A stretch of DNA of 63,025 bases, counting the filler, from Asterionella formosa (Eukaryota): assembly GCA_002256025.1 (NCBI GenBank). It is 16 parts of 16 records of this genome, joined end to end, with 100 filler letters (N's around TTAATTAATTAA, not from the genome) between each part and the next. Parts side by side here need not be neighbours in the genome. Positions count along the whole stretch, not along the records: positions 42,124 to 44,129 come from NKIB01000658.1; 15 more parts are not named here. The stretch is one strand, 5' to 3'. The position numbers and the translations under genes were made by a program. Positions 2,167-63,025 of the stretch are shown here, piece after piece. How positions within the stretch are numbered: the first letter of the stretch is position 1; each line of letters starts with the position of its first letter. The notes beneath the pieces were generated by a model. That model was not told the DNA's origin. It saw nothing but the letters and a program-made list of their open reading frames with translations, and made no database searches.

Positions 2167-2404
2167 GCCGCGCCCCCCACTGGTACCAGGTAACCGAATA
2201 TCGAAATGTATAGAATATACTGGTATATGTGTACAAACAAGCAAGAAACAAATCATTCAATTATTTTCCATCATTCGCAAGTCTGAATCAGCTCTTGCCC
2301 TCCTCCATGAGGTCCTATGGAGCCGTCGCCACTGTATTTGGTCACCAACCTACAAAGTAATCATGATAATGTCCTTGAATCGTTGTTGGCATGCCACTCC
2401 TCTC

Positions 2405-8881: not shown

Positions 8882-10192
8882 TCAAGCGTCATGATGCCCC
8901 CCTTCAAAATATTCTCCCTCCCACCAGAGCGAATCGTCATAATCATCTGGAGCTTCCAGCGCCGTCTTCTTCATAACGACCCCAGTCGCGTATCCAGACA
9001 AGATCGCCGTTACGAGAGTCCCAGCCACTCCCATGAGTTGGCGTAGAGGTTGAAGTACTCCACCAGTCAAGAACTCAGCCTTGGAGTCCATGATGACGAA
9101 GATCGCACTAGCAAGCCCACCAAAAATGCTAGGCCATCCATGCAAATTACCCACCCCACAGGTATCATACAAGCCAAACCACTTTTCTAACGTTGGTGTC
9201 GAGTACACATATCCCAAAACGGACACCATACCAGCCGCAACACCTACCAAGAGTGACCCTCCTGGTGTCATGGCGAGACGAGCGGACGATCCCACAGCAA
9301 CTCCTCCCGCCAAGGTACTATTGGCAACATGGACGGGGTCCAATTTGCCATGCTTGGTGAGAATCGTCATGAAAAAGGTTGCTCCAGTGCTTCCCAGGAG
9401 AGCAAATATGGTATGCATGATGCATAGACGTTCGTTTTCTGGCACCCCAGTTTCGGTGCCACCTACAAAGCTGGGCCAGTATACCCAAAGGATTGTAGTT
9501 CCAATCAAGGCAAGAAGGTCCGATACTTTGTCAGGAGTGGCGTTGGATGCAGTGGATGGCTTAGGGGGTCCGAGGGCGTACGAGGCGGCGAGCCCAAAGT
9601 ATGCACCGAACATATGAATGGTCATGGTGCCCCCTACGTCTTCGGCTTCAAAAACTCCAAAGACGAGTACGACCTTGTTGAACGCGTAAAAGAATGATTG
9701 TGAGACAGCCATGATGACCAGCTGAACCGGCGAGGCGCGGCCAATCACTGCGCCGTATGAAATTAGCAATGTCGCGGCGCTGAACTCCCCGTCAATGATG
9801 GATGCCACACTAAGTGGAAGGGGAAGGACTGTGTCTTCGGATCCAGCGTCGCCGTTCAAGAAGCGTGCGCCGAGTTCCATAAATATGTTTAGCTGCACAG
9901 AAATGACAGTGAGCATCATGGTAAGACCGACAGCACCAAGACCGTACTTTTTCAAGAAGGTCATGAGGAAGCCAAAACCCAGCAAAAGCATCGTCATGAT
10001 ATCACGAAAGATGACATATTCAGTCGGTGAATATTCTTTAAAGTTATACGTTGTGGCCGTCACGAAGAGAACCAAAAGAATGAGTTGGATGGAGCCCACG
10101 AGCAATAGAAGAGTTCTGGCGCTAGCCTTGGCATAATCCAGGGCTGGCGCGCCGTTCTCGAATGAGACAAGTGGAGTAGACTCGGTTGGCAT
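8882..10192 (-). CDS. Rhesus (Rh)-type ammonium transporter/gas channel (Amt/Mep/Rh superfamily)
   Basis: Rh signature FRDIMTMLLLGFGFLMTFLKKYG, also DGEFSAATLLISYGAVIG and DVGGTMTIHMFGAYFG. Twin His (IHMFG, NLHGWP), multiple TM helices. Start is either 10192 (MPTEST) or 10276. Confidence 0.92.
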   Translation of the reverse strand: MPTESTPLVSFENGAPALDYAKASARTLLLLVGSIQLILLVLFVTATTYNFKEYSPTEYVIFRDIMTMLLLGFGFLMTFLKKYGLGAVGLTMMLTVISVQLNIFMELGARFLNGDAGSEDTVLPLPLSVASIIDGEFSAATLLISYGAVIGRASPVQLVIMAVSQSFFYAFNKVVLVFGVFEAEDVGGTMTIHMFGAYFGLAASYALGPPKPSTASNATPDKVSDLLALIGTTILWVYWPSFVGGTETGVPENERLCIMHTIFALLGSTGATFFMTILTKHGKLDPVHVANSTLAGGVAVGSSARLAMTPGGSLLVGVAAGMVSVLGYVYSTPTLEKWFGLYDTCGVGNLHGWPSIFGGLASAIFVIMDSKAEFLTGGVLQPLRQLMGVAGTLVTAILSGYATGVVMKKTALEAPDDYDDSLWWEGEYFEGGHHDA

Positions 10193-11149
10193 GGTCGATG
10201 TAACCGAGCTTTGTGATGCAGAAGGAGAGTGGCGCTGAGAGAATGCAGAGATTGCAAAATACATCTGCACTTGCATGCTGTTGTGTCCCTGAATTCTTAC
10301 GGGGTTAGCATGATGCTCCTATCCTACCACCGGTACATACAACACCACCCCAAGGATCTTTTTTCCTTGTTGCACCATACATAGGTCAGCAACGTTCCCT
10401 CATATGTATGCTGTTTGACATTGGGACACAACTATGAAAAATATTTATTTTTGTTGCTTCTTCCTTTTGGATCTGGGATCTTTGAGCCATATGAGGCATC
10501 CGGTACCTGGTACAAATAATATGAGTACCTGGTAGCAACGGACCGTGTATGCACCTCCTTGCTGTAAATTGCCGCGTTCTGATACTGTATATTACCTGGT
10601 ACCTGGTACGGTATATGTGTATCAGCATGTTCGCTCTCGTGCTTTTGCGTACTGTAACACAAATTGTTCAGTCAACATGATGAATTTATCGCTTTTGCTG
10701 GGGAGAGTGGAAAACACAATGAATACAATTATTGCTTCCACCATGATATCAATACAGCAACCAATTTAAAGTCCAAATCTATAGCAATCTCCAATTGCTA
10801 CATCAACACCAGGCATCAATGCTCAACAATCTTCTTCTGTATCAATTGAATGTCAAACATCAGCCAAGTTACTAGAATGGTCACCATAGTAGCTAGTAAG
10901 AATAATAATGAAGAATTACCTTAAATAAATCCAATGTATCTAAGACTTAAAAATGCATTCTATGTTTGATCATGATAATACTAATGAGTATAATGAACAA
11001 GAGGAGACATAGCAAACGAGAGGATGAATTGCTAGGAAAATTTAACCATTAATAATTAGAGGGAAATTTAAATTTGATGCCAGTTAAGTAAACAAAGATA
11101 TTTCGATAATCAGAGCAGCACAAAGACGATATTATAAAATGTATAAATC

Positions 11150-29143: not shown

Positions 29144-29549
29144 CCACACCACCTACCAGTAGATGAGTGAGGCAAACTACAAACCAGTACCTGGTACCAA
29201 GTACCTTGGGGAAGGGATAGCTATCGCCCTTCTGAACTAAACTAAAAGACCAGTATTTAGGCGCGCACGCTTTTGTATGACCCGCAATGCGTGCTGCACA
29301 AAATCCGAACTATCTCAACGACACATACGTTGAAATACGGGAACCTGGTGCTTGTATGTACTTCGACAACGAAGAACTCCATAAAAGCCTCCTAACATTC
29401 CAGTACATATACCGGTACCGGGTAACAATGCTTTCCGATATGTGATACTTACCGGTACACGGACTTTTTTAATATCAAAAATCGATATAACTCCACCCAT
29501 GTAACAATTGCGATCACAGAGGTACAAACTTCACTTTTTCACAGAAACC

Positions 29550-31472
29550 ATGACGAACAACCACACCCCGTTGATCGATCCAGACCTTCTTGCCACCATT
29601 CCTGAAGGTGAACGCGAGCAAGCCTTAGCTGCTGCTGCCGCTGCTAGACGAGCCGAACTTCGGGCCGAAGAAAGAGCCGTGCAAGCTCAGTGCGACCGGG
29701 AACGCAAGCAAGCGACATTGGCCAAGGGGGTTGTCTTTGTCAGCAAAGATCAGAGAGGAAAGGCTGTTGCAGCTGACCTCATCTCTGTCACAGATGCTGT
29801 CACGGACAGAAATCCTACCCAGGCACCGACAATCTCATCTGTCTTGACCGACGGGCAGCGATCTGCCATTAAACGATCGTACCTTGGCAAAGCAGCTGTG
29901 GAATCCGAATCATGGCGGCTGGAGCAGCGAAACAAGCGACGTGCAGCCAAGAAAATTACCTTCAAATTCAAATGGGACAACGCCGACGACACTAATGAAA
30001 ACAACGACGATGACATGCTGTACCAAGCCATGGTGGCTAAGAAACAAAAGCGATCCAAGCTAGACGCAATGCCCAATCTCACTTTGTCCTTGGATACTGT
30101 CATGAAGAAGCCTCTCGCACAAATGACAACACGAGATTGGAGGATTGTCAGAGAAAATTTTGACATTGTCGTCAAGGGTGGCATGACGCCATCGCCCCTG
30201 CGCTCATTTCAGGAGGCAGCCTTGCACCGAAGCATCCTTGATGCCGTCGAACGCACGATGAAGTACACTGAGCCATCACCGATTCAGAGACAAGCAATCC
30301 CGATTGGACTGCAGCGACGGGATTTAATTGGTCTTGCCGAAACAGGAAGTGGAAAAACCGCAGCCTTTGGGATTCCACTCTGTCACTACGTCTTGTCCTT
30401 GCCTACTGACATTCTACAAAACGTGGCTGAACAGGGTCCGCTCGCTCTTATTATGGCACCCACACGAGAATTGGCAATCCAAATCGACGTGGAATTCCAA
30501 AAACTGCTTTCCTTTGCATCTCACATCACCTGTATTGCCATTGTCGGTGGACAGCCCCTACCACAACAAGCTCAAAAATTGAGACAAGGCGTCCATATCG
30601 TTGTAGGAACACCGGGACGGCTGAACGATTGCCTCGACATGGCATACATGGTACTAAATCAATGCTGTTATGTTGTATTGGATGAAGCCGATCGAATGGT
30701 GGATATGGGATTTGCTCCACAAATCACGTCCATACTCGATGCCATGGGCGGAGCATTGAAATCAGACGTCGAACAGGAAGCTTACGAACAGGAATTGAGT
30801 GATTTAAAGACGAGTGGTTTACCAAAATATCGATTAACGGCCATGTTTAGTGCGACAATGCCAACAGAAGTTGAGCGTATGGCCAAGACCTATCTCCGAC
30901 ATCCTGCTGTGTTGTCTATTGGTGACCAACACTCTCGGAAGAATGCTCGCATCAAACAACGCATTGTATTTTTACCATCTCCTAAACAAAAAGAGCGCGC
31001 TCTTCGAGACATTTTGGGACGGCCTAGTGCTCCTCATGACAAGATTATTGTTTTTGTTAATGAGAAGAAACATGCAGACGGCGTGGGCCGCATGGTGGAA
31101 CGCATGGGACGGACATGTGTGGTGCTGCATGGTGGCAAGTCTCAAGAACAGCGAGAGGAACACTTATCTCTCTTTCGACAGGGCGGAGGTGTGGTGATGG
31201 TCGCCACCGACGTGGCCGGTCGTGGGTTGGATATTCCCAATGTATCCCATGTCATCAACTTTGATTTGCCAACGAGATCGATTGACAATTATAGTCATCG
31301 GATCGGTCGTACGGGTCGTGCGGGGAAAGAAGGGTTGGCAACGTCTTTTATTACAGATGAAGATGAAGGTATTATGGCAGCGTTGAAACAGTACTTAGAG
31401 AGCACTGGAAATGAAGTGCCGGATCGACTTGCACGCCATCCTGCGGCAGCTGAGTCATCGAATATCACATAG
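29550..31472 (+). CDS. PRP28: DEAD-box RNA helicase Prp28/DDX23 (U5 snRNP)
   Basis: FKFKWDNADDT, MTTRDWRIVRENFDI, PSPIQRQAIPIGLQRRDLIGLAETGSGKT, DEAD, SAT and HRIGRTGRAG. Confidence 0.93.
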   Translation: MTNNHTPLIDPDLLATIPEGEREQALAAAAAARRAELRAEERAVQAQCDRERKQATLAKGVVFVSKDQRGKAVAADLISVTDAVTDRNPTQAPTISSVLTDGQRSAIKRSYLGKAAVESESWRLEQRNKRRAAKKITFKFKWDNADDTNENNDDDMLYQAMVAKKQKRSKLDAMPNLTLSLDTVMKKPLAQMTTRDWRIVRENFDIVVKGGMTPSPLRSFQEAALHRSILDAVERTMKYTEPSPIQRQAIPIGLQRRDLIGLAETGSGKTAAFGIPLCHYVLSLPTDILQNVAEQGPLALIMAPTRELAIQIDVEFQKLLSFASHITCIAIVGGQPLPQQAQKLRQGVHIVVGTPGRLNDCLDMAYMVLNQCCYVVLDEADRMVDMGFAPQITSILDAMGGALKSDVEQEAYEQELSDLKTSGLPKYRLTAMFSATMPTEVERMAKTYLRHPAVLSIGDQHSRKNARIKQRIVFLPSPKQKERALRDILGRPSAPHDKIIVFVNEKKHADGVGRMVERMGRTCVVLHGGKSQEQREEHLSLFRQGGGVVMVATDVAGRGLDIPNVSHVINFDLPTRSIDNYSHRIGRTGRAGKEGLATSFITDEDEGIMAALKQYLESTGNEVPDRLARHPAAAESSNIT

Positions 31473-31558: not shown

Positions 31559-32335
31559 CTAATTGTCACGGCATTTGTTCAAGATGTAATCCACGGCTTG
31601 ACCTATGTGCTCCGCCAAAAAGGTTGGTTGGCATTTTTCCTCGTCTCCCTCTTGGTACTTTCCAGTCTTAACGAGAATGGTGTGACCGATCCCGGCCTCT
31701 TTGGATCCCATAATATCCTGTTTCCAATCATCTCCCACCATAACCGTGGTCTGCCATGATGCGACATTGGCGGTGGCGAAGAACTCACGATTTGGCTTTC
31801 CCATGACAATAGCTTGTCGTTTGGTGGCATGCTCGAGGCACGCCACGAATCCCCCTGGTCCTAGGGACAAGTCTCCGTCCGAGTCTCGAATATACGGGGC
31901 TCGATGAATAGCAATGAGCGGCGCTTCTGGTTGGTGAAGTAACAATCGAAAGGCTTGATTGATGAGCTCATAGTGAAAATGAGTCGGAGCGAACCCAACG
32001 ACAACGGCATTGTGAGGAGCGTCTAGAGGTACTTGTGGGGAAAAATCGGACGTATCCTCCATCAAACATAATGGACGTAGCTTGTGCTGTATCAGGTATT
32101 CTTTGGTGGCCAAGACAGATGTTAACAAAGGAGTATTAATAGTAAAGCCCAGCGCTTGCAGTTGCTCGAGCAGTTTTATACTTGATTTAGTCGAAGTGTT
32201 AGTCAGAAATGTCACGCCAATGCTGGACTGCTGCAGTCTATTAATAGCATCGACTGCGCCATCAATGACAGAGTCGCCGATGTGAAGAGTTCCTGACAGG
32301 TCAATGAGGGCATCAAGAATTATGGGTGGGTCCAT
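31559..32335 (-). CDS. HAD-superfamily IIA hydrolase, HDHD2/LHPP-like
   Basis: IDLSGTLH, FLTNTS, LIAIHRA, LGPGGFVACLE, MGKPN, MVGDDWKQDIMG and LVKTGKY. Likely start MDPPII at 32335. Confidence 0.9.
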   Translation of the reverse strand: MDPPIILDALIDLSGTLHIGDSVIDGAVDAINRLQQSSIGVTFLTNTSTKSSIKLLEQLQALGFTINTPLLTSVLATKEYLIQHKLRPLCLMEDTSDFSPQVPLDAPHNAVVVGFAPTHFHYELINQAFRLLLHQPEAPLIAIHRAPYIRDSDGDLSLGPGGFVACLEHATKRQAIVMGKPNREFFATANVASWQTTVMVGDDWKQDIMGSKEAGIGHTILVKTGKYQEGDEEKCQPTFLAEHIGQAVDYILNKCRDN

Positions 32336-32572
32336 CGCTGCTATTTTAAAATTTTCTATCCGTGGGACAGGAGCGATGAATAAAAAGGTGCGGGGGGAAA
32401 TTATGTATGTTGCTGGTTTGTATACCGCAGGTACATATGATGTAAGGGTAATCCGTGACAGGAACGTGCGTACCGGCAGTCCATGGCTATCCATAATTAG
32501 CATCATAGCAGACTTTGGTACCAGGTACCGGTAGCTATTAGCTATCATTATGACATCATTATTCACCTCCAG

Positions 32573-37911: not shown

Positions 37912-39917
37912 TGTTGAAAGGTCTCGTACTCCTTCCCGTCTGACGGGTTCCTCTTACGTAGAACTTACCTGCTATACCACTAGTATTGTTATCTTCTTTC
38001 TGCTGCTAGCCTTCGTGCTAGTTTTCGTTATTGACCTTACTCTGTCAATTCTCACTGTTTCTTAATTATAAGATTAAACTAAAACTAAGTTTCAATCCCA
38101 TTCATCACACTTCGAGAACCTGTTCTTCGTGTTCCCTTTTCGTTGATGTAAACCTTCTTCTGATTGATCTAAGACATCAATCTCGTTAGCAAGCTTCTTG
38201 ACATGGGAACGCACCATTTGACTCATTGGACTATAGTCGAGTCCACAGTCCTTGTGACTCATTATAGCCATTGATGCTATATTCTTGACATCCTCCTCGT
38301 TACCATGTTCAAGAAGTTCTAAAATTGTACCACTCAGCACGGGTCCAGATAACCTTGTAAAAATCTGCTCTTTGACATTCTTCGTCAAAATGTCTGCTGG
38401 ATTGTTTTCTGATCTTAGAAAAACAATATGCAACTCACCCTCATCTATCATGTTCTTGACATGATGAAACTTAATATCAATGTGTTTTGTTCTTGTTCCA
38501 AGTTGTTGATTCTTCGCTGTGAATATTGCACCTGTATTATCCTCATGTAAAATGCTTGGTAGGATATTTTTGCCACCTGTCACTTCGTTGAGTAACATTG
38601 CAATAAATTTAATCTCTTGAGCACATTGCGACATTGCAACGTATTCTGCTTCTGTGCTTGATAGCGTAACGGATGACTGGCCCTTTGATTGCCAACTGAT
38701 CAACGCACCACCAATGGTAACCAGAAAACCCGTAGTACTTTTCCGGCTTACCTTATTAGCAGCCCAGTCACTATCAACATAAGCAATAACCCGCAATTCC
38801 TTAGGTTTTCGAATCTTGAGAACTCTGTCCAATTTGCTTGATAAGAATCCAACAACTCGTGAAATTCCATCCCAGTGTTCTTCGCCTGGACAGCTTAAAT
38901 ACGAAGATAATTCACGTACTGCATTGGCACAGTCCGGGGAATCTTTCTTAGTAGACCATAATAGTTTCCCAACAATCTTGCGATATTCCGCCTCCATAAT
39001 AGTTTCTCCATTATTGGCTCCTAGTGTTTTTCCTGGTGCTCCTGGTGTCGCATAAGACTTTATCTTCTTACCAGTAAGCATTTCATATTCCAGTAGCATT
39101 TCAGTACGAAATTTCTTCAGTTGTACTTCCCAGTATTCTCCAAATTTGTCATGCTTGCGCATATATTCCACACCTAAGTGTTTTCGTACAGGACCTTGTT
39201 CCGTGATATTAAAATCCTCCTTGATCATATTTTTCATATAGTCGACTGCATTCCTGGTACCACAAATAATTCCATCATCCACGTAGTTTGCCAACAGCCC
39301 TTCAATTTGTCCATCGTTGTTACGGTAGATAAACAACATTGGGTCTATTTCACTTTTCGTTATACCTTTCTTGCTGGTGACGGATTTCGCAAATGTCTTA
39401 GACCAGCATCTTGGAGCTTGTACAATTCCATACATAGCCTTAATTAATTTGCAGATATGTATATTCTGATCGATCCCTGTCAATCCTTCTGGGGGCTCAA
39501 TATAAATGTCTTCGTCGACGTCAGCATTTAAAAACGCTGCTTCAACATCGATTGCTTCCGCTATCCAACCATAGTACAAAGTAACAGCCAGAACAGTTTT
39601 TATTGTAGCATCACTTGCAACAGGAGCGAATGTTTCAGTAAAATCAACTCCCGGGATCTGTTCATATCCCTTTACAACCAACCGTGCCTTGTATACTGTC
39701 TTTCCGGTTATCACGTCCTCCTTAATACGGAAGACCCATCTTGTCTTAAGAGCTCTCTTGTTCACGTCATTTCTCTTAACTATTTTCCATACTCCTCTTG
39801 CTTGGAAGTTTTCAAATTCTTTCTTTATAGCTTTCATCCACTCTTTGCGATCAGGTCTTACCATTGCCTCATCATAACTATTTGGTAAACCTGGGTCCGA
39901 TGCAAGACTTGCATTGA
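37912..39917 (-). mobile_element. Ty1/copia retrotransposon, intact RT-RNaseH (ORF to 38092) plus complete 3' LTR 38290-37912
   Basis: YKARLVVKGYEQIPGVDF, DVEAAFLNA, YVDD, YVDSDWA, SSTEAEY, EDNTGA and ADILTK. PPT gaggagga|TGTCAAG, LTR ends ...ttcAACA at the contig edge. Confidence 0.95.
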
Positions 39918-40017: not shown

Positions 40018-42023
40018 TGTTGAAAGGTCTCGTACTCCTTCCCGTCTGACGGGTTCCTCTTACGTAGAACTTACCTGCTATACCACTAGTATTGTTATCT
40101 TCTTTCTGCTGCTAGCCTTCGTGCTAGTTTTCGTTATTGACCTTACTCTGTCAATTCTCACTGTTTCTTAATTATAAGATTAAACTAAAACTAAGTTTCA
40201 ATCCCATTCATCACACTTCGAGAACCTGTTCTTCGTGTTCCCTTTTCGTTGATGTAAACCTTCTTCTGATTGATCTAAGACATCAATCTCGTTAGCAAGC
40301 TTCTTGACATGGGAACGCACCATTTGACTCATTGGACTATAGTCGAGTCCACAGTCCTTGTGACTCATTATAGCCATTGATGCTATATTCTTGACATCCT
40401 CCTCGTTACCATGTTCAAGAAGTTCTAAAATTGTACCACTCAGCACGGGTCCAGATAACCTTGTAAAAATCTGCTCTTTGACATTCTTCGTCAAAATGTC
40501 TGCTGGATTGTTTTCTGATCTTAGAAAAACAATATGCAACTCACCCTCATCTATCATGTTCTTGACATGATGAAACTTAATATCAATGTGTTTTGTTCTT
40601 GTTCCAAGTTGTTGATTCTTCGCTGTGAATATTGCACCTGTATTATCCTCATGTAAAATGCTTGGTAGGATATTTTTGCCACCTGTCACTTCGTTGAGTA
40701 ACATTGCAATAAATTTAATCTCTTGAGCACATTGCGACATTGCAACGTATTCTGCTTCTGTGCTTGATAGCGTAACGGATGACTGGCCGTTTGCTTTCCA
40801 ACTGATCAACGCACCACCAATGGTAACCAGAAAACCCGTAGTACTTTTCCGGCTTACCTTATTAGCAGCCCAGTCACTATCAACATAAGCAATAACCCGC
40901 AATTCCTTAGGTTTTCGAATCTTGAGAACTCTGTCCAATTTGCTTGATAAGAATCCAACAACTCGTGAAATTCCATCCCAGTGTTCTTCGCCTGGACAGC
41001 TTAAATACGAAGATAATTCACGTACTGCATTGGCACAGTCCGGGGAATCTTTCTTAGTAGACCATAATAGTTTCCCAACAATCTTGCGATATTCCGCCTC
41101 CATAATAGTTTCTCCATTATTGGCTCCTAATGTTTTTCCTGGTGCTCCTGGTGTCGCATAAGACTTTATCTTCTTACCAGTAAGCATTTCATATTCCAGT
41201 AGCATTTCAGTACGAAATTTCTTCAGCTGTACTTCCCAGTATTCTCCAAATTTGTCATGCTTGCGCATATATTCCACACCTAAGTGTTTTCGTAGGGGAC
41301 CTTGTTCCGTGATATTAAAATCCTCCTTGATCATATTTTTCATATAGTCGACTGCATTCCTGGTACCACAAATAATTCCATCATCCACGTAGTTTGCCAA
41401 CAGCCCTTCAATTTGTCCATCGTTGTTACGGTAGATAAACAACATTGGGTCTATTTCACTTTTCGTTATACCTGTCTTGCTGGTGACGCACTTCGCGAAT
41501 GTCTTGGACCAGCATCTTGGAGCTTGTACAATTCCATACATAGCCTTAATTAATTTGCAGATATGTATATTCTGATCGATCCCTGTCAATCCTTCTGGGG
41601 GCTCAATATAAATGTCTTCGTCGACGTCAGCATTTAAAAACGCTGCTTCAACATCGATTGCTTCCGCTATCCAACCATAGTACAAAGTAACAGCCAGAAC
41701 AGTTTTTATTGTAGCATCACTTGCAACAGGAGCGAATGTTTCAGTAAAATCAACTCCCGGGATCTGTTCATATCCCTTCACAACCAACCGTGCCTTGTAT
41801 ACTGTCTTTCCGGTTATCACGTCCTCCTTAATACGGAAGACCCATCTTGTCTTAAGAGCTCTCTTGTTCACGTCATTTCTCTTAACTATTTTCCATACTC
41901 CTCTTGCTTGGAAGTTTTCAAATTCTTTCTTTATAGCTTTCATCCACTCTTTGCGATCAGGTCTTACCATTGCCTCATCATAACTATTTGGTAAACCTGG
42001 GTCCGATGCAAGACTTGCATTGA
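40018..42023 (-). mobile_element. Near-identical second copy of the copia RT-RNaseH plus 3' LTR (40396-40018)
   Basis: Same length (2006 bp) and endpoints as 37912-39917, with few substitutions (S>C, K>T, V>L, QSK>KAN). Confidence 0.95.
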
Positions 42024-42659
42024 NNNNNNNNNNNNNNNNNNNNNNNNNNNNNNNNNNNNNNNNNNNNTTAATTAATTAANNNNNNNNNNNNNNNNNNNNN
42101 NNNNNNNNNNNNNNNNNNNNNNNTTAACCCCAGTTGTGACAACGATTCGTCAATGCGTACTGTGCTATATCTTTAGTACAGTCACTGTATGAGATTTTCG
42201 ATGTAGATTTCGGAATTTCCGACTGCAAGTGCCGGTAGTTCAGAATGCCTGTCATTATTGTCGTGCGCCGTCGTCACCTCGTATCTCTATGTAGCTACTT
42301 TTCTAACCTTGTTCAGACTTATTCCCAGTATACAACAGGTGGGAGTATAGTCTACATGGAACCAGTAGCTTTGAGCATGCGACTGTTTGCCCTAATTGAC
42401 AGAAATTCATATACCTTACGACATCGAATGTAGTTTTATATGAAGTATTAGACAGCATTTTCTTAGAATAACTTCTGGATTACCCATTCCCGCTTGGGTT
42501 TTTTCGCTAGAATTTCAGCGAAGACAAATATGACGTGCTCCACATTCACATGATGTTAAAGACTTCTTTGCGATGCAAAATACAACAGAAAAGCTCAAAG
42601 CAAAGCATGATATATTGGCAGGACTCATCATCGTCACAGCCGTCAAATCAATAAAATAA

Positions 42660-44129
42660 ATGACGAATATAATAAATATCTTTTCGAAAAAAGGATTGCG
42701 CAACAATATTAACTCGATATTCGATCGGTGCGAGTCCATGAAGATATTGCAAAACCACTTTCCGACAAGGCTATGTAGAACTACAAGGCCTTCGAATGGT
42801 GCAAGTCACATCAGTAGCATCAATCGGAAACAATACCGAGATGAAAAACTATCAGGACCTCTTGCAAATAAGACAGAGGACACAGCCCTTCATGTGGCTA
42901 TTTTGACCTGGTACTTGCTCTTCGGGGCGTTGCATGAGTTCTCCCATGTCCTCGCTGCTGCGGCCATTGGAATCGGAAACAAAATCTCTGCCAAAGATAT
43001 CCTTCTCGCTGTCCTTGCACGAGGAGTCATCATTCCTGGACTCTACAATGCTGATCCTGTCTCGGTGATGATCATTCGTCATAGCGGATGGATATCAAGT
43101 ATCCTGGTGGGTCTCGTTGTTCATTTGATCCATTCAAGGACACACAGTGCAACCAATAAGTGGATCAACTCCGCTCGCTCTGCTGCTTGGATTACAGCAG
43201 TCGAGGCGATAAGTACCGATCTTCTTGGCTTTGGCCTGTATGGCACCTTGAGCTCGTCCACTTTCCTTTGCGGCAACTTTGGAATTATCCTCATCAACCC
43301 ACTCTGGACTGAAAGCTCCCAAAGTAGTAAACAGGTCCTTGATTTACTTGCCAAGATGATTAGTGTCACCATGATGCGAGGTGCACAGACTGGTGGAGTG
43401 ATTGCTTGGGCAAAGAATGACAACAATGAGATCTATGGGATTCGAAGTAGAGTTGTCAACGGCAAGCGGACAGATTTATCTAAAGGCGTCAAAGACAAAG
43501 TTAAGCGAGACACATTTACCCACGGCAAGATTAAGGGAGGAATCCAAGGCTTCTATGGTCACACTCGCTTTGCTACTTCTTCAAAGGCTACTTTTGACGG
43601 GACACACCCTCATCAATGGACACCTTCAACAGTCAGACGAGTTTATCGCAGGAATGCCATGAATTCCAACAGTTGTCCAAAACCAAGCAGCTTGAAGGTA
43701 GAGAACTTCGTCAGTCACAATGGTGACTTTGATTTCTTTCGTGTTAACGATATTTACTATGATCTCAACAGCATCCAAGATTGGTTGGTCAAGGCGACCG
43801 GTGCTCCTATGCCGACTTCGGTTGACAGCTGCGCCATTGCTGGCATGATTGACATGATACGTACTTCGGGATGCTTCGCTTTGAGTGCTCGTTTTGCGTT
43901 GCTTCTAGGCATGTCAGGAAGTACCATTTCTGCAAATGATGATATTCCGTCATGGCCAGCTTTTGAGGAAGTTGGTACAGCTTTCGAGGTTGCACTTGAA
44001 GTATTCTGTGCGAAACACCTCATTTCACCTGCAATGATAGGAGACAGTGAGGATCTCCGCCAAGGTCTCACCCTTGAAGCGGCTCGAACAATCGAACCAG
44101 CATGGTACTACTCACATGAAGCCTTCACG
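42660..44129 (+). CDS. Membrane HExxH (peptidase M50B-like) domain fused to a class-II glutamine amidotransferase (GlmS-like Ntn) domain; 3'-truncated
   Basis: TM helix with HEFSH (42933-42947) and further TMs. Then CGNFGII (43269), RGAQTGG, GHTRFAT, THPH, HNGDF and VDS, which are GATase-2 motifs. Start uncertain (42660 or 42738). Confidence 0.8.
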
Positions 44130-44230
44130 NNNNNNNNNNNNNNNNNNNNNNNNNNNNNNNNNNNNNNNNNNNNTTAATTAATTAANNNNNNNNNNNNNNN
44201 NNNNNNNNNNNNNNNNNNNNNNNNNNNNNC

Positions 44231-44533
44231 ATGGACATGACCACCCGCCTCTGGCACGCGGCCGACGGCACCTCTGCCGGCGAACTTCCCCGCCACGGCT
44301 ACTGGATCTGGAAGGTCGCGTTCAGTCCCGACGGCACCCGTCTCGCCACCGCCAGCGCCGACCACACCGCCCGCGTGTGGGATGTCCGCACGCTCACCGC
44401 CATCAGCGCTCCATTGCCACATCCGAGCATCGTCCTTCACCTCGCCTGGCACCCTGACGGCTCTCGTCTCGCGACGGGCGATGCCCGGGGTGATATCCGG
44501 ATTTGGGGTACCGGCGATCAGTTTGAGCAATGA
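44231..44533 (+). CDS. WD40-repeat protein C-terminus (bacterial; 5'-truncated)
   Basis: VAFSPDGTRLATASADHTARVWD and LAWHPDGSRLATGD. High-GC codon usage. Confidence 0.85.
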   Translation: MDMTTRLWHAADGTSAGELPRHGYWIWKVAFSPDGTRLATASADHTARVWDVRTLTAISAPLPHPSIVLHLAWHPDGSRLATGDARGDIRIWGTGDQFEQ

Positions 44534-44647
44534 GTGAAAGTCCGGAAATCCGGATATTTCATGTTTTTTGAGTGGTGTGCGGTGCGCAACTTTGGGCCTG
44601 GGAACTGTCACTGATGGTTCGAGCCCATTCATGGCGCACGAACCGCG

Positions 44648-46224
44648 ATGTCCTTCCCAATTCTAACAACTACCGCGAGGGAGCTGCTGCGCCCTGTTTT
44701 CGCCGTCCTGCTGACCTTTGCCCATGTGGAGGCGGCGGAACACGAGCCGCCACGGCATATTCCCTCGTCTGACAAAGTGCCGGAAGGTCTTTCGGCCTCG
44801 GACTGGCAAGGCATTCGCGCGGCGTACGAGTCGGGGCGGCACGGCTTTCAGCCAGTGGCCGATGGCTGGCTGGCACGGAATCCCGGGCAGCAGTGGACCA
44901 CTCATTTCGACAGGCAGGGCTTCACCGCACAGCCGCAGGACGCCGGATGGACGTGGGGCTTGCAGTTGGAGAGTTATGGTTTTGGAGAGGCGCAGACATC
45001 CGTCGGTGGGACGCCTGCGGTGCATGCGGAGGGCCTGCGACTGAGTTACCAGTGGGATGCCACGGTGGAGGAGTGGTTCATCAACGATCCGCGCGGGCTG
45101 GAGCATGGCTTTACGGTGGCGCATCGTCCGCCATCAGGAACTACCGATGAATCATCCGGACTTTCCTTCACCCTGACGACCCGGGGCGACCTCACCCCGG
45201 AAGTCGGTCCGCTGGCGGTGGCTTTCCACGATGCCTCTGGAGCGACCGTGTTGAACTACTCGGGACTCAAGGTCTGGGATGCGGACGGGACCATCCTCGC
45301 CTCGCGCTTCGAGCCGGCGGGAGGGAAGAGCTTCCGCCTGGTGGTCGATGAACGCGGCGCCCGCTATCCCATCACCATCGACCCGATCGCCCAGCAGGCG
45401 TATCTCAAGGGCGACAATGGCAGTGACGGATTCGGGTTCGGAACTTCGGTCGCCGCTTCGGGAAATACCGTTGTGGTGGGGACGCCGCGAGAGGGCGCTG
45501 TCTATATCTTCACCCTCAGCAGTTCCGGTGTGTGGAGCAAGCAGGCGCGTCTCGTGGCCAGCAACCCCGGAATCGCGGAGTATTTCGGACAATCTGTTGC
45601 CATCTCCGGAGACACGGTGGGCGTCGGAACGAGCTTTGAGAGCAGCAGTGCCACGGGCGTGAATGGCAATCAGACGGACAACAGCACACCCGGTGCCGGC
45701 GCGGCCTACATCTTTACCCGCAATGCCGGTGTGTGGAGCCAGCAGGCCTACCTCAAAGCCAGCAACACTGAGAGCAACGACTACTTCGGCGGGTCGGTTT
45801 CCATCTCGGGAAACACCGTTGTCGTGGGAGCCGAGGGAGAGGATGCAGCCTCCATCGGTATCAACGGCAATCAGGCGGATAACAGTGCCGTGGATTCCGG
45901 TGCAGCCTATGTGTTTGTCAGGACTGGCAGCAACTGGATCCAGCAAGCCTATCTCAAGGCAAGTAATGCGGATTTATATGACGAATTCGGTCGATCTGTT
46001 GCCATCTGGGACGACACCGTCGTGGTCGGGGCTCGCTATGAGGGCAGCGCAGACACCGGTGTAGGTGGCACCGGAACAAACAATCATGCGCCTGAATCGG
46101 GAGCAGCCTATGTCTTCACTCGCAGCGGCAGCACGTGGAGCCAGCAGTCAATTCTCAAGGCCAGCAATACCGGGGCGGGCGATTTGTTCGGCTACACGGT
46201 TGCCATTTCGAATGACACTGTTGT
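44648..46224 (+). CDS. Secreted FG-GAP/integrin-like beta-propeller repeat protein (bacterial; 3'-truncated)
   Basis: Signal peptide, N-terminal domain ending YPITIDP, then repeats of QQAYLKASN..D.FG.SVAISGDTVVVGA..E...GAAYVF. Confidence 0.9.
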
Positions 46225-51523: not shown

Positions 51524-52527
51524 ATGTTGTCGCCATTTGATTTACTTGATGATAATGACGATGACAGTAGTGATCTTGATTTCTTCTTCCTCTGTCATTT
51601 AGCTAAGGAAGCAGAGGAAAAAGAACACTCATCCAAACGACAAAGGCGACGCTGTAAACGGCAGCTTCAGTCATCTGAACGACGATGACAACGAAGGCAC
51701 AAGTGGCACCACGAAAGAATCTCCTGGCAATCACATGTCGAGAAACTCAATCACGAGATTGCTTTCGAGAAGACATACAGAATGTCACACAGAGCATTCA
51801 AAAAACTCACCTCCATGCTGGAAATTCAGATTGCAGGGAATTATTCCAAATGTGGCACTTCTGAGCCCATAATTCCCGAAATTGTGGTAGCCATTGGTTT
51901 GCGATGGCTGGCTGGTGGCAGTTACATCGACATTTGTCATGCCTACGGTTGTAGCATTGCTTCACTTTATCGATGTCGTGATTTGTTCATTGATGCTGTA
52001 CTAAACTGTGGAGAACTCGAAATTGTTTTTCCAAAAGAAAAAGAAGAATTTATCAAATTGGCTTCCAGCTTTGAATGCAAAAGCTCAGAGGGCATGATGA
52101 GAGGATGTGTTGGTGCTATTGACGGCTTCCTAGCCACCATCAACCGCCCGACTATAGTTGAAAGTGGCAACAATCCTGGTTCATTTTTTTCCGGTCACTA
52201 CATGACTTATGGAATCAATGTCCAGGCTGTTTGTGATGCTGACTCAAGATTTATTTATTTTGGTGTAATTGCACCGGGAAAATGCAGTGACCAAGTAGCT
52301 TTTGAACGAACTTCCATTTTCGATCGAGTTGCAGCATTCAACACAGGTTTTTATCTGGTCGGCGATGCAGCTTACACATTGTCTGATGTAATGCTTGTTC
52401 CCTTTGTTGGCTCACAACGTGATGATCCAACACAGGATACATTTAACTTTTTCCTTTCACAGCTAAGGATAAGAATAGAAATGGCATTTGGTCTTCTTCA
52501 GACAAAATGGTGTGTTCTGAAAAAAAA
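51524..52527 (+). pseudogene. PIF/Harbinger DDE transposase (HARBI1-like) with one premature stop; 3'-truncated
   Basis: GLRWLAGGSYIDI, GCVGAIDG, YGINVQAVCDA, LVGDAAY and FNFFLSQLRIRIEMAFGLL. In-frame ATG at 51524 and TGA at 51686-51688. Confidence 0.9.
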
Positions 52528-52627: not shown

Positions 52628-54628
52628 GTGTGGGTGTGTGAAACAATGTCTCTCACTGCTAACTCATCATTTGCGCTGGAAGGTCGGACTCCTATAGAAC
52701 AAATCACAGGCGAGACACCCGACATATCCGAATACTTGGATTTCGGGTTCTACGATTGGGTGTGGTACAAGGATAATGCAGGGGTTGGCGAAAACATGTT
52801 CCGGCGCTGGCTTGGTGTGTCTCACCGAGATGGTAACCTAATGTCATATGGGATTCTAACCATTGCTTGTCGCGTTATCTCTCGCACTACAGTGCAGTGT
52901 ATCACTCACCTTGAACTGACAACTAGCAAGGTCAAATACAGATGCAAGGAGTACAATGAGAGGATAAAGGAAATCATGCATGACGACAACCACCAAAACG
53001 CAGGCGATGAGGAGGAGCAACAATTGCAGGATTGGGATGAATACTCGGATCTACAGGACGATCCAGTATTCGGCAAACAGATAAACAATGTTGTGAGCGA
53101 TCACCAAATACCAGATGCCGATGACACCTTCACGCCCGATATTTTAGAGGATACATACCTCAACAAAGAGAAAGCGATAGCGAGGGGCGCTGGAGATGAT
53201 AACGATGGTGTTCAATTCGGCAGAATCAACAAGAGATTGCGCGACGCCGATGGTAGACCTATCGGCAAGGCTCACGAAAATCCTTTGCTTGACACGAGAG
53301 AGTATGAGGTCGAGTTTTTTGACGGACACTCAGAGGCATTGTCTTCTAACCTTATTGCTCAGAATTTGTTTTCACAGATAGACGAGGAGGGCTAACAACA
53401 CGTACTTCTCGACGACATAGGCGGAATGCGATGGCACTCGACAAAGAGGACGCGTTCATCACAATGTCTAACGGTGTCAAGCGGCGGAGACAGACGACTC
53501 AAGGGTGGCAACTCCTGTGCCAATGGAGGGACGGGAGTACCACTTGGGTCGCACTTAAGGATATGAAGCAATCGTACCCCATACAGGTGGTGGAATACTC
53601 AATTGCTAATCGTATTGATGACGAGGCAGCGTTTGCGTGGTGGGTGCCGACTCTTCTAAAGAAACGGGACCGAGTCCTAGCAAAGGTAAAGTCTAAGTAT
53701 TGGCAGCGAACTCACAAATACGGTATACGGATACCGAAGTCCGTCGAAGAGGCGTTAGCGATTGATAAAGCCAATGGCAACACATTATGGTGGGACGCCA
53801 TCTGCAAGGAAATGAAAAACGTGCGACCGGCATTTGAAAAGTGGGAAAAGCGAGAGGGAGACCTTCCGCCAGGGTACCAAAAGATAAGGTGTCATTTCGT
53901 GTTCGACATCAAAATGGGCGAAAACTTTCGGCGTAAGGCGAGACTAGTTGCTGACGGCAGCCGGACGGAAACGCCCGCAGCCCTGACGTATTTGTCAGTT
54001 GTGTCGAGGGACTCAGTGCGCATTGCCTTATTGATTGCTTCATTGAACGACTTACAACTTCTTGCTTGCGATATTCAAAACGCTTATCTAACCGCAGATT
54101 GCAGAGAGAAAATTTACATAATTGCAGGGCCGGAATTAGGGTCAGAAGCGGGAGCTACCATGGTGGTGAAGAAAGCGCTGTATGGGCTCAAATCTAGCGG
54201 TGCGGCATTCAGAGCGCATCTCGCAGAAACCCTCCATGATTTGGGTTACTTGCCCACGAAAGGGGACCCTGATGTATGGATTCGACCGGCGGTAAAACCG
54301 GATGGGTTTGAGTATTACGAAATGATTCTTGTATATGTTGATGACATTCTTTGCATTTCAGCGCAGCCTAGAGCGACTATGAGCGGGATACAGTCGACCT
54401 TCAGATTGAAGGATGATAAAGTCGAGAAGCCGGAAAATTACCTGAGAGCCCAGGTAATGCAGAAAATAGTCGACGGAGTTGAGTGTTGGGCCATGACTTC
54501 CGAGCAGTATGTCAAGGCGGCCATCGCCAACGTAGAGTTCAAACTCGACGAGTCGGGTCAGCGGCTTCCAACGAGGTGCACTACCCCATTGCAGGGGAAT
54601 TATAGACCGGAACTGGATATTTCTGCCG
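52628..54628 (+). mobile_element. Diatom Ty1/copia (CoDi) pol fragment, integrase C-terminus to RT, degenerate
   Basis: GRTPIEQITGETPDISEYLDF, TTQGWQLLCQWRDGS, RKARLVADG, DIQNAYL, KALYGLKSSGA and YVDD. Stop and frameshift at ~53393-53430. Confidence 0.92.
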
Positions 54629-59679: not shown

Positions 59680-60926
59680 TGAAGTATCTAACTAGAAGTA
59701 GTAGTATTTGTTGAATATATGAGCTTATTAATTAATCCTTCTGTATAACTCATTTCCTGAACTGACATCAAAGTATAGAATGGGTGTTAGTCGAGTTCTC
59801 TCATTATTGAATTCCGATATATTTGACATAACCCCAACTCTATATATATCTGTATCGATGTGCAGGATTGCTCACTCTCCCACACTTGAGGGAAAACCTT
59901 TTACCTATGAAAAGGTTTGATACGACGAATATTAATTCGTTCTGTAATGTGCATAGTGCGTTGAAAAGTAACTGTACCATTGGCATGTACTTGAATAATA
60001 GTATAAGGACCTCGTCCACAATTATCCAAAGTAGTAGGATTATCCAATAATATTAAAATCTCGTCACCCACTTTGTAATCATAAGATCGACGACGGAAAT
60101 TTGCACGACGTAAACGTTCGTCAATTATCACCTGTCGACGTTGATGTATTAATTGTAAATCTGTAATCAAAGGAATATTTAATATCATATCACTTTGGAA
60201 AACCCATGCTCCTGGTGAAATACGTAATATACTATGAATAGTAGCTCGAGCTGCATATGACGCAGCTGCAAAACATGTATCCACAATATTTTGGGCTTGA
60301 AATTCATTGATTGGAGGATGAGCCTTTAACATAACTCGTAGACTATTGCTGATAGATTGATGGAAACGTTCACAGATAGCATTTGCTTGTGGATTCTTTA
60401 CTGTGGTAGTCACATCTTTGATTCCATTCAATACTAACATGTGTAAGAAAGGAGCACCAGTAAATTCACCTCCATTGTCATGTATACAACGTTCTGGACG
60501 GGGATATCTGGCTAACCAATCATTTTCAAATTTCATTGCAATATATTCTGATGTTTTATTGATGATACGTGAAATTTCTGCTAAATTGGTGACTGTGTCA
60601 ATACAAGTTAGAGCACGAAATTCAATCGTTTGAGCAGCCACTGTTATCTTCCATGGACCAATTAGATCTACTGCGACTTCTGACCATGGTAATAATAATG
60701 CATTCCTGGGTGGAAGTTCACCAAAACCAGTACCAGGTAATTTTGTACGTTGACATGCTTCACATACTCTTACAATATGTTCCACTCTTGTTTTTAATAT
60801 AGGGTGATAAAAATGTGTAGCAATTGTAGCATTTAATCTTGTCATACCCACATGAGCTAACATCTGATGATACCAATTAATAATAGGATCCAATAATGAT
60901 GTAGGAATAGCAATACGCCAAGTATC
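59680..60926 (-). mobile_element. Ty3/gypsy integrase (ORF to 59901) plus putative 3' LTR (59874-59680)
   Basis: HHCC zinc finger (YHQMLAH...CEACQ), AVDLIGPW, HDNGGEF, NPQANAICER and a GPY motif. PPT-like gggagag|TG. Confidence 0.92.
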
Positions 60927-61026: not shown

Positions 61027-63025
61027 ACGGGAAAATGCCCCGATTGGCTTTTCTACGGCTTTCAGCCTAAGATTTATCCTCACCTGATTCAGTTTGGCAG
61101 GGTGGGGTGGGCCACGATTCGGACGCCAAGGCAGAAACTAACCCCAAAAAGTGTCAAATGTGTCATGCTTGGATACAGCCATGACCACGCCGGTGATACC
61201 TACCGCATGTACAACGTTGCTACGAAAAAGGTCTTCAACACAAGAGACCTTAAATGGGCTGACTGGCATGGAAATGCCAAACCGACAGCGGACATGGACG
61301 AATTCACCACAGACGGATCCGGTATAGATGAGGAATTTGACACTCCTACTAAACCCTCCAACGCAATAGTACCTCCTGACGAACAAGGGGCTGATACGCA
61401 ACTACCAACGAAACCGGACGATCCCAGTACTCCGACGAGAGTGCGCTTTGTAGATTCCGTCGCAGGTGGTATGAGTACGAATGAGCATCGTACGAATTAT
61501 GCTACGAAATCTACAAAGCTAGATCGAGAAATGAATAGGCCATCAACAGGCCTTGTGACCTCGCCTACACCTACTCGTGCAGGTACACGTCAGCAATCAT
61601 CCGCAGCACGCACGCTTATCTTGGATGACGACACGAATGAAAACCTCCAAGAGCACGAACCTAACGAGGAAGCACATTCAACGAGCCTAGCTTCCGACCC
61701 ACTGGAACCCAAGAGCTACAAGCAGGCACTACTAAGTAACGAAAAAGACGAATGGACCAAGGCAATCAAAGCTGAAATTGAAAACTTCTACTCCCGCAAA
61801 GTGTGGAAGCTACATCCTCGTAAGAATCTAAATGGACGAAAGCCACTTGGAGCAAAATGGGTATTTAAAAAGAAGAATGAGCACGACAACACTACGCGCT
61901 ACAAGGGCCGCATCGTGGTAAAAGGCTACGTGCAGATACCAGGTGTCGACTTCACAGACTCATTCGCACCTGTTGTTACGGATACAGGCCTACGTATTGT
62001 GTTTGCGCTCACCCTACACAGAAAAGATTTTGTTTGTGAAATTGTGGACATCGAAGCGGCATTCCTCGAAGCCGACCTCGACGAAGAAATCTACATAGAA
62101 TGGCCAGATGGAATCGCTAACTTCCACTACGAAAATGAAACGACTATGACTGACAACTGCATCCGACTGGACAAGGCAATGTACGGCACGTTACAAGCTG
62201 CACGGCAATGGTTCAAGAAACTCCGAGACTGCCTACTTGATATAGGACTCAAGCAAAGCCGTGTCGACCCCTGTGTGTTCTACGAAAAACGAGAAGGCAT
62301 CCTTACCCTACTGCTATGCACCTACGTCGATGACCTCGCAGTAACCGGCAGCCAAGCCGACGTCAACAAGTTCAAGTTGGCACTGAAACAATACTTCAAC
62401 GTTAAAGAGCTTGGCCAGCTACGCAAGCATCTAGGAGTATGGTACGAATGGGGCGAAGACGAGAACGGACGCTATCTACAGTCCGAAATGGAGGACTTTG
62501 TCAAAGATATGATTAATGACTACACGACTATATTTGGAAAGGAACCAAAGAAAGCCTCAACGCCGGGATTCCCGGGAACGGTCCTAAGTAAGAACCGAGG
62601 AGAGACGATCAAGAATAAGGAATATCGCTCCCTCGTTGGAAAGATACTTTACTTCGTGAAGAAAATATCGCCAGTATGCGCCAACGCATGTCGTGAATTG
62701 TCACAGCACCTCGACAACCCAGGCGAAACGCACTGGCAAGCATTGGAACGCCTACTCGGGTATTTGTGTCTACATGGGGACATTGCATGCAGAATGAAAC
62801 TACGTGCGCCCAACGAGCTACGTATACAAGATGTCGTGGACAGCGCCTTCGCCTCTAATCCTGATACACGAAAAAGTGTCAGCGGTTATTTAGGCACGAT
62901 CGGAGGGTGCGCCCTAATTCACTGGATATCAAAAGGACAGGATATCGTAACGCAATCAAGCACCGAGTGTGAATATGTCGCACTCAGTAACGGCTCAAAG
63001 GAAACTGTCTTCGCAACGAATCTAC
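61027..63025 (+). mobile_element. Ty1/copia pol fragment (integrase C-terminus, RT, RNaseH start), apparently an open frame
   Basis: KSVKCVMLGYSHDHAGDTYRMY, EPKSYKQAL, YKGRIVVKGYVQIPGVDF, DIEAAFL, YVDD and QSSTECEY. Missing from the ORF track, presumably because it has no stop before the window end. Confidence 0.93.

Follow-up and report, generated by a model that had tools for sequence, protein, structure and literature searches.

Class-II amidotransferases, which are N-terminal nucleophile (Ntn) enzymes, use the free alpha-amino group of Cys1, and the ordinary way to expose this residue is a Met-Cys start. In GlmS, the Arg (and Thr) of the HTR motif bind glutamine, the Asn-Gly of HNG forms the oxyanion hole, and the Asp of TDT binds the glutamine amino group. 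Section 6.1 of one review describes a few residues that precede the N-terminal Cys in class-II amidotransferases and are removed autocatalytically (PMC9140057). Site-2 proteases (S2P), as the relevant parts of two papers describe them, have a core of three membrane helices, the first carrying HExxH and the third an Asp motif, and a membrane-reentrant beta-loop near the active site that binds substrates through strand addition (PMC10202637, PMC4597795). Some S2P subgroups carry additional domains such as PDZ (PMC10202637), and the S2Ps treated in those parts cut separate membrane proteins (PMC10202637, PMC4597795). We analyzed a stretch of 63,025 nucleotides from Asterionella formosa (the window), in which an original prediction had placed a membrane zinc protease fused upstream of a buried amidotransferase nucleophile. 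A partial coding sequence of 490 codons lies at 42660..44129 on the plus strand, with an ATG start and a 3' end cut by the contig end, and its product, P0001, appears to join an S2P-like membrane core to a GlmS-like amidotransferase. We give a probability of about 50% to the reading in which the fused metalloprotease core cleaves the linker that follows it and thereby exposes Cys204 as the nucleophile. The S2P core, the class-II amidotransferase and the SIS domain are each of a known kind; their combination is one for which no description was found in the full-text literature, supplements being outside the scope of that search, and the family lies outside the curated models of both parents.

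The piece of the window that carries the gene (42124-44129, 2006 bases) holds a single uninterrupted open reading frame (ORF), still open at 44129. All motifs named in the original prediction were found in P0001 at the places given there, on the plus strand like every part of the gene described below. They are HEFSH at residues 92-96 (nucleotides 42933-42947), IRHSGW at 139-144 (43074-43091), EAISTD at 182-187 (43203-43220), CGNFG at 204-208 (43269-43283), GHTRFAT at 300-306 (43557-43577), THPH at 315-318 (43602-43613) and HNGD at 353-356 (43716-43727). The first 203 residues precede Cys204 in the encoded protein, and the Cys is thus indeed buried far from the N-terminus. Residues 1-70 (42660..42869) form an N-terminal extension that is not conserved in relatives and is modelled at a predicted local distance difference test score (pLDDT) below 50 for residues 1-67. 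The putative S2P-type membrane core follows at residues 71-188 (42870..43223), then a linker at residues 188-203 (43221..43268, LLGFGLYGTLSSSTFL), and from the Cys204 codon (43269..43271) to 44129 the N-terminal part of a predicted class-II glutaminase domain with a helical insertion. The rest of the glutaminase domain and the SIS domains would lie beyond the contig end in this gene; full-length relatives, of 1200-1580 residues, run on into SIS-like domains, which bears out the earlier proposal that this part had been lost.

P0001 belongs to a large family without informative names. A word-indexed search with P0001 returned 281 homologues at E<=1e-3 (best 1.9e-165), all unnamed or "hypothetical", and HMMER, run exhaustively over 1.84 billion cluster representatives, returned 795 with E<=1e-3, of which 171 had E<=1e-30. 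Cluster look-ups supplied no informative name for the family. HExxH stands upstream of CGNxG in one frame in 171 of 245 collected proteins. Given these homologue counts, the motif set is far beyond chance, and the motifs are the family's invariant columns. Sequence searches of the PDB with P0001 and with the family profile found nothing relevant, and the ESM Atlas gave no usable match.

The region from Cys204 onward is, by predicted structure, a GlmS/GFAT-like class-II amidotransferase in which Cys204 corresponds to Cys1. The model of the truncated P0001 gave GFAT-1, GlmS and PurF as its top Foldseek rows at E values of about 1e-2, with none at E<=1e-3, and matched 4amv at Z 7.7 and 1xff at Z 7.3 in VIA-align. 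These matches are weak because the protein is cut inside the glutaminase domain, and we therefore folded P0016, a relative of 754 residues that is 45% identical to P0001 (alignment A4); its model had a pLDDT of 89.4 and a predicted template modelling score of 0.78. When compared with the PDB, the P0016 model matched human GFAT-1 at Z 24.9, E. coli GlmS at Z 24.7, and the isolated GlmS glutaminase domain 1xff at Z 24.1 over all 238 residues, with a root-mean-square deviation (rmsd) of 2.4. Other amidotransferases followed, with PurF at Z 20.4 and EgtC, AsnB and glutamate synthase at Z 13-16 (AsnB 15.0, GltS 13.2). Foldseek returned 50 matches for P0016 at E<=1e-3, of which GFAT-1 was the top (2.2e-9). 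The alignments begin at the family Cys (model residue 123), set against chain residue 1 or 2, and residue 1 itself lies opposite this Cys in 1xff, 4amv, 1ct9 and 6s6s. With Z values of 24-25 to GFAT and GlmS and the Cys superimposed on Cys1, the GlmS-like class-II assignment made in the original prediction stands.

Comparison of sequence profiles gave the same register. An hhalign run of the family profile against E. coli GlmS paired the residue before the Cys with GlmS Met1 and the Cys with Cys, matching the register implied by the structures, at E 0.011-0.024; the weak statistics are attributable to a template consisting of a single sequence, and the forced alignment beyond about residue 150 was not trusted. 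The paired motifs were MRGAQSGG with YRGYDSAG, GHTRFATSS with AHTRWATHG, HNGD with HNGI, and VDS with TDT, and HPH was also aligned. In P0001 the first of these reads MRGAQTGG (43374..43397), with R240 nearly invariant, and VDS lies at 43821..43829, with D389 invariant; GHTRFAT is the counterpart of GlmS AHTRWAT. Across 119 sequences, G300, H301, R303, F304, A305, T306, HNGD (N354, G355) and D389 were invariant. Among 114 relatives, Pfam GATase_6 was matched in 1, at E 0.049; P0018 matched at E 0.048 and P0001 did not match. By sequence models the family thus lies outside the curated GATase families, and its membership in the class rests on the predicted fold and the motifs.

The likeness to GlmS and GFAT extends over the glutaminase and the first SIS domain, with the Cys at fold position 1 and the motifs RG..S.G, HTR.AT, HNG and D(S/T) shared. 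Residues 607-754 of P0016 match many SIS domains (Z 7-8.5), and GFAT-1 and GlmS align through residue 754. Pfam SIS matches in relatives are weak (E ~3e-3); the SIS phosphate loop (S-x-S-G-x-T) is represented in the family by SHSGGT, aligned to SQSGET of GlmS, which was the sole SIS stretch aligned by hhalign. There are also differences. The family is too diverged for Pfam and NCBIfam, its proteins are 1200-1580 residues long, and about 200 residues including the membrane protease core precede its Cys. A helical insertion of more than 100 residues, without a GlmS counterpart, interrupts the glutaminase domain after the Asp motif and before the "AKGSFGL" strand (about 400-480 in P0001, about 328-456 in P0016). 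Within the SIS region, fused and Met-Cys forms alike have strongly hydrophobic segments (P0131 867-928, P0205 783-810, P0218 920-982), and these may form a membrane hairpin in the enzyme body. An EF-hand pair was found near the C-terminus in 4 of 11 long relatives scanned, with ACT domains instead in 1 (P0193, 2068 residues); variation of the C-terminal tail was noted for P0122, P0124, P0125, P0131 and P0193. The Pfam scan found no EF-hand and no ACT domain in either of the two long Met-Cys relatives. The differing tails suggest lineage-specific regulation by calcium or amino acids.

The AlphaFold2 (AF2) model of P0001, built with a 119-sequence alignment, placed residues 70-200 at pLDDT>90, with three long helices at 71-102, 133-160 and 167-188. 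The HExxH residues 92-96, with H92, E93 and H96 as the predicted zinc-binding/catalytic set, lie inside helix 1, and Asp187 (43218..43220), a candidate third metal ligand in the context E-A-x-x-T-D-L-L, lies in the last turn at the end of helix 3. G143-W-I-S-S147 (GxxxS; 43086..43100) lies in helix 2, and a short helix and a strand of 3 residues (122-124) lie in the loop that joins helices 1 and 2. In a structure comparison independent of Foldseek, run against 48,161 PDB chains, the top matches of the core were the RseP orthologue 7w6z (Z 8.4, 124 residues aligned, rmsd 3.5), SpoIVFB 8vjl (Z 8.0) and the M. jannaschii S2P, MjS2P, 3b4r (Z 8.0). The same three led for the membrane part of the second, independent model, P0016 (RseP Z 7.7, SpoIVFB 7.6, MjS2P 7.1). 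A possible substrate-like pairing of two 3-residue strands of the first model, 122-124 and 201-203, was dropped, as these strands were absent from the second.

Sequence models identified the same module in relatives. Peptidase_M50B was matched at E<=1 in 11 of 114 relatives (best 4e-8) and Peptidase_M50 in 10 of 114; among 60 relatives scanned, 9 matched Peptidase_M50B at E<=0.01, and 4 exceeded the curated cut-off of 26 bits (P0220 33.7, P0234 33.1, P0226 27.9 and P0155 26.9 bits). A Peptidase_M50B search of E. coli K-12 (1 record) gave no match. Three short stand-alone relatives of the membrane module were found, and these look like cut pieces of the same family that end inside the linker. 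Taken together, the leading structural matches and the four relatives above the cut-off bear out the M50B/S2P-like domain of the original prediction, and residues 71-188 are a putative M50/M50B-type membrane metalloprotease core. Like RseP, SpoIVFB and MjS2P of MEROPS family M50, the core has three helices, HExxH in helix 1, a candidate ligand Asp in helix 3 and a loop with a strand between helices 1 and 2. It differs from them in being bare, without a PDZ or CBS domain, in having TDLL in place of LDG, and in being tied covalently, by a short linker, to what appears to be its own substrate.

Conservation was counted over 263 collected proteins aligned to the family hidden Markov model (HMM) with no selection by motif, 18 near-identical cluster members included, and only sequences covering a given column were counted. 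H92 was present in 187 of 188 sequences (the exception is a 193-residue fragment), E93 in 188/188, H96 in 189/189 and D187 in 216/216; in the GxxxS motif, G143 and the following W were each present in 196 of 201 and S147 in 199 of 202. C204 was present in all 230 covering sequences, as was G208, while G205 and N206 were each present in 229 of 230. The invariance of HExxH and CGNxG in another alignment, A3, was not used because its rows had been picked by motif, which would be circular. HExxH, the Asp and CGNFG are therefore co-conserved by column counts, as the original prediction had required.

The linker between Asp187 and Cys204 is of variable length and has a conserved end. The Asp-to-Cys distance is 12-43 residues with a median of 21 (n = 194), and Ser, Gly, Thr, Ala and Pro abound in the central part of the linker. 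The three residues before the Cys are hydrophobic: P3 is V, T or I; P2 is F in 135 and L in 43; and P1 is F in 82, Y in 39, L in 30 and H in 15. In P0001 this triplet is T-F-L, and the implied scissile bond would be Leu203-Cys204. Such a conserved hydrophobic P3-P1 triplet is expected for a recognized cleavage site. In the P0016 model, pLDDT is below 50 over the ten residues that lead up to the Cys, and the Ntn sheet begins with a strand directly behind it.

The protease module is missing from ten relatives. Nine of these start with MCGN(F/L)G, and the tenth has Met before the Cys after a called 5' extension of 39 residues without a membrane helix or HExxH. Met at P1 occurs only in these ten sequences; no Met precedes the Cys in the module-bearing forms. 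A maximum-likelihood tree was built from 230 residues beginning at the Cys, with 88 rows comprising all 10 Met-Cys forms and 78 of 153 fused forms (alternate rows, with the addition of whichever of six named rows this had left out). The Met-Cys rows were interleaved with fused rows inside a clade of 99% support, and P0243, a Met-Cys form, was sister to the fused P0178 (support 97). Well-supported branches force at least 3 gains or losses, and the best tree needs 6. The Met-Cys forms P0205 and P0218 nearly fill their contigs of about 4.1 kb, and there is therefore little room for an upstream exon; a metagenome scan with P0243 found two loci, covering residues 301-554. That the module-less relatives start exactly with Met-Cys strengthens the need for cleavage in the fused forms.

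RNA evidence bears on whether the membrane region is part of the message. The sequencing runs in which the stretch occurs bear freshwater, lake or algae metagenome labels, and polyA RNA libraries are among them. Together with the gene content of the other pieces of the window, this points to a eukaryotic microbe as the source of the gene, probably a freshwater alga or protist. Assembled contigs from four polyA/cDNA RNA libraries of two studies tile the locus from 42427 or 42570 to 44129 (to 44014 in run X16) with no joint, and the bins at 42124-42391 are uncovered in all four runs. The transcribed 5' region is 42427..42659, the contigs beginning at about 42427 in X16 and at 42570 in X9-X11. 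The HExxH codons lie on some contigs (e.g., 42773-43151) and the Cys codon on others (43203-43529, or 43203-44129), with a bridging piece of 111 bases at 43122-43232. The contigs cover the membrane region without a splice joint, and P0001 has no Met before Cys204; both points speak against the splicing-out or downstream start that the original prediction had held open.

Upstream of 42570, the RNA contigs carry sequence unlike the window that resembles a diverged allele or strain. Upstream of 42676, an unrelated 255-letter stretch was seen in 3 runs of 2 studies, and this could be an alternative 5' exon or a paralogue. The membrane module, which starts at residue 71, is left untouched by it. 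With the first 70 residues unconserved and this alternative 5' sequence present, the true N-terminus of P0001 is uncertain.

Since 203 residues and no Met precede Cys204, and class-II enzymes need Cys1, a cut at Leu203-Cys204 is required for glutaminase activity. We consider it quite probable that cleavage before Cys204 occurs and, given such a cut, the fused protease is somewhat favored as the agent that makes it. The fusion protein would be translated as an inactive precursor, and the metalloprotease core would then cut its own linker at Leu203-Cys204, either in cis or, within an oligomer, in trans. As a pro-domain that removes itself, the protease module would take over the task that falls to Met removal in the Met-Cys relatives. 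The activated enzyme would move glutamine nitrogen to an acceptor of the ketose-phosphate or sugar-phosphate type at a membrane, an acceptor that we infer from the GlmS-like fold alone. In full-length relatives the protein has five parts, namely a variable N-terminal tail, the putative S2P-type core, a linker of 12-43 residues ending in [V/T/I]-[F/L]-[F/Y/L/H], the Cys-glutaminase-SIS body and a regulatory C-terminus.

The predicted layout of the core helices fits this scheme. Helices 1 and 3 are parallel in the AF2 model, HExxH and Asp187 are both near their C-terminal ends, and the core ends 17 residues before the Cys; with this arrangement, the active site should face the same membrane side as the linker and amidotransferase. 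A complex prediction of residues 70-190 against 191-490 scored 0.09 and was not used as evidence either way. Human S2P is said to cut SREBP-2 at a Leu-Cys bond, and RseP reportedly cuts RseA at Ala-Cys; a literature search found no paper that confirms either, PMC8144685 mentions neither, and both serve only as a lead. The release of a soluble enzyme, which the original prediction offered as one outcome, is doubtful, as full-length relatives have further strongly hydrophobic segments in the SIS region; the sensor role also offered there gained no support in either direction. Because fused and Met-Cys relatives alike carry such segments, the enzyme need not be released after the cut.

Several points weigh against the reading that the fused core activates its own amidotransferase. 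The N-terminal position of Cys204 is predicted from architecture, folds and conservation, and the linker is modelled at pLDDT<50 in both the P0001 and P0016 models. Z values of 7-8.4 for the membrane core are moderate and reachable by chance for helical bundles; unrelated bundles follow at Z 5.7-6.7, so that the fold evidence for this core is insufficient by itself. An hhalign comparison of the family profile with E. coli RseP gave nothing meaningful, and Asp187 is a candidate metal ligand in a T-D-L-L context, compared with the canonical L-D-G. P0001 itself had no match above the cut-off in Pfam and none in NCBIfam, and the identities of its domains therefore rest on relatives and predicted structure. 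The sole Pfam match below the cut-off, RHS_N (E 0.032), was taken as chance. The HExxH and Cys codons were never on one RNA contig, and their continuity depends on 30-base overlaps. Finally, autocatalytic removal of propeptides is reported for class-II amidotransferases in the part of the review cited above (PMC9140057), so the Ntn domain may be able to process itself with no need of the metalloprotease.

This last point leads to the strongest competing explanation, Ntn autoprocessing, in which the Cys204 thiol would attack the preceding bond through an N-to-S acyl shift and the membrane module would be a large propeptide or anchor. The conserved metal site would then have another task, be it cleavage of other substrates, breakdown of the freed pro-piece or metal sensing. 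Both the Ntn fold and the full set of glutaminase residues are intact, and section 6.1 of the review describes the autocatalytic removal of N-terminal residues in this class (PMC9140057). However, the propeptides described there are of a few residues (PMC9140057), compared with a conserved membrane domain of about 130 residues plus a linker in the fusion, and neither the invariant HExxH and Asp nor the hydrophobic P3-P1 triplet has a role in self-attack by the Cys. The module is also found only directly upstream of the Cys, and a bare Met replaces it where it is absent. We regard autoprocessing as unlikely, although it keeps an appreciable share of the probability. Strict conservation of the metal site, the hydrophobic P3-P1 residues and the confinement of the module to this one position are easier to reconcile with a built-in protease than with a passive propeptide.

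The comparison with known self-exposing nucleophiles can be put in the same terms. The short propeptides of class-II amidotransferases (MEROPS C44) resemble the fusion in that an extension must go to expose Cys1, as the review describes (PMC9140057); they differ in being a few residues long and autocatalytic, whereas the extension of the fusion is a conserved, catalytic-looking membrane domain. Self-processing Ntn hydrolases, such as proteasome beta subunits, acylases and gamma-glutamyltranspeptidase, likewise turn an internal nucleophile into an N-terminal one by cleavage, according to the same source (PMC9140057). In those enzymes the nucleophile cuts its own chain, whereas the fusion has a second, unrelated and putative protease active site in its pro-region.

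Two other explanations are each improbable. Another cellular protease could cut before Cys204, with the membrane module just anchoring or targeting the precursor, and the conserved hydrophobic P3-P1 residues could be the site of such a protease. This would leave the strict HExxH and Asp conservation unexplained and would call for a dedicated partner in every lineage with the fusion. Alternatively, there may be no cleavage, the protein being either an S2P-type protease with a GlmS-like, metabolite-sensing regulatory body, comparable to PDZ or CBS domains, or an amidotransferase that uses an internal Cys. Added domains such as PDZ are described for S2P subgroups in the part of the account already cited (PMC10202637), and the variable EF-hand or ACT domains at the C-terminus suggest regulation. 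However, all glutaminase residues are invariant, which is unexpected for a pseudo-enzyme, and the protease-less relatives keep the whole body and start with Met-Cys, so the body works alone and wants its Cys first. An artefact, in which two neighboring genes or exons were misread as one protein or the membrane part is an untranslated leader, is very improbable: the gene calls on metagenome contigs are automatic, the first 70 residues are unconserved and an alternative 5' RNA sequence exists at 42676, but the modules are read in one frame with no stop between them, 171 other sequences share the arrangement, the membrane part is conserved as protein and covered by RNA contigs without a joint, and no Met precedes Cys204.

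Further observations were made on members of the family. A C-terminal "...RIATTASPVSG" motif is conserved in the full-length sequences P0122, P0205 and P0218. The gene calls of many relatives end or derail after a conserved "...SNLLQ", continuing V-S or V-R (alignment A1, columns ~1229-1235), and a conserved intron position starting with GT would give such a pattern. A scan of genome contigs gave 2 pattern matches out of 20; one was on a 26.6-kb contig labelled as a Verrucomicrobiaceae metagenome-assembled genome (L003), on which the fused-form gene and a type III glutamine synthetase (GSIII_N, E 3e-52) lie head-to-head about 270 bases apart (3-2027 on the minus strand and 2296-5907 on the plus strand). 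Both genes are split over several frames, consistent with introns and a likely mis-binned eukaryotic contig, and L003 was therefore not counted as a bacterial member. A maker of glutamine adjoining a user of glutamine is suggestive, as a single case.

The window consists of 16 pieces, one of 31.5 kb and the others of about 2 kb each, joined by paired 44-N spacers around "ttaattaattaa". ORFs of mobile elements were found at 38092-39864 (-), 40198-41970 (-), 51782-52527 (+), 53431-54628 (+), 59901-60893 (-) and 61102-63024 (+). Four of these carry a Ty1/copia-type RVT_2 reverse transcriptase, two being 590-residue ORFs on adjoining pieces; an integrase zinc-binding domain and a DDE_Tnp_4 transposase are also among them. 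The piece at 44230-46224, which adjoins that of P0001, has a GC content of 0.55-0.61, compared with about 0.35-0.50 elsewhere, and encodes FG-GAP_2 repeats (E 7.5e-50); its source may be another organism than that of the remaining pieces. On the 31.5-kb piece the genes are of ordinary cellular kinds, with ORFs at 8882-10276 (-), 29508-31472 (+), 31559-32566 (-) and 7507-8652 (+), whose products are an ammonium transporter (E 1e-53), a DEAD-box helicase, a HAD-type hydrolase and an ankyrin-repeat protein. No Rfam RNA family reached the gathering score anywhere in the window (1-63025).

The general claim, that an S2P-type intramembrane metalloprotease cuts its own polypeptide to create the N-terminal Cys nucleophile of a GlmS-like amidotransferase, is made tentatively, and we would put it somewhat short of an even chance. 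If true, the protein would be the first of the S2P family whose substrate is covalently joined to the protease, and the first Ntn enzyme whose activating cut comes from a built-in second protease and not from the nucleophile itself. A large, widespread and unnamed eukaryotic family that buries its Cys behind a membrane protease core departs from the textbook pattern of Ntn amidotransferases. The fusion offers a clean test case for an intramembrane protease acting on its own chain, with the Met-Cys relatives as a natural control, and this compact, self-activating pair of protease and enzyme could serve as a model of S2P substrate handling. Such a cut is irreversible, and some members have an EF-hand or ACT tail; in algae and protists, the protein could therefore be a single-use switch, gated by a signal, for amino-sugar-type synthesis taking place at a membrane. 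The analysis provides a function-level hypothesis for hundreds of "hypothetical proteins" of aquatic eukaryotes, and points to a membrane-bound, possibly calcium- or amino-acid-regulated nitrogen transfer that is absent from current algal metabolic maps.

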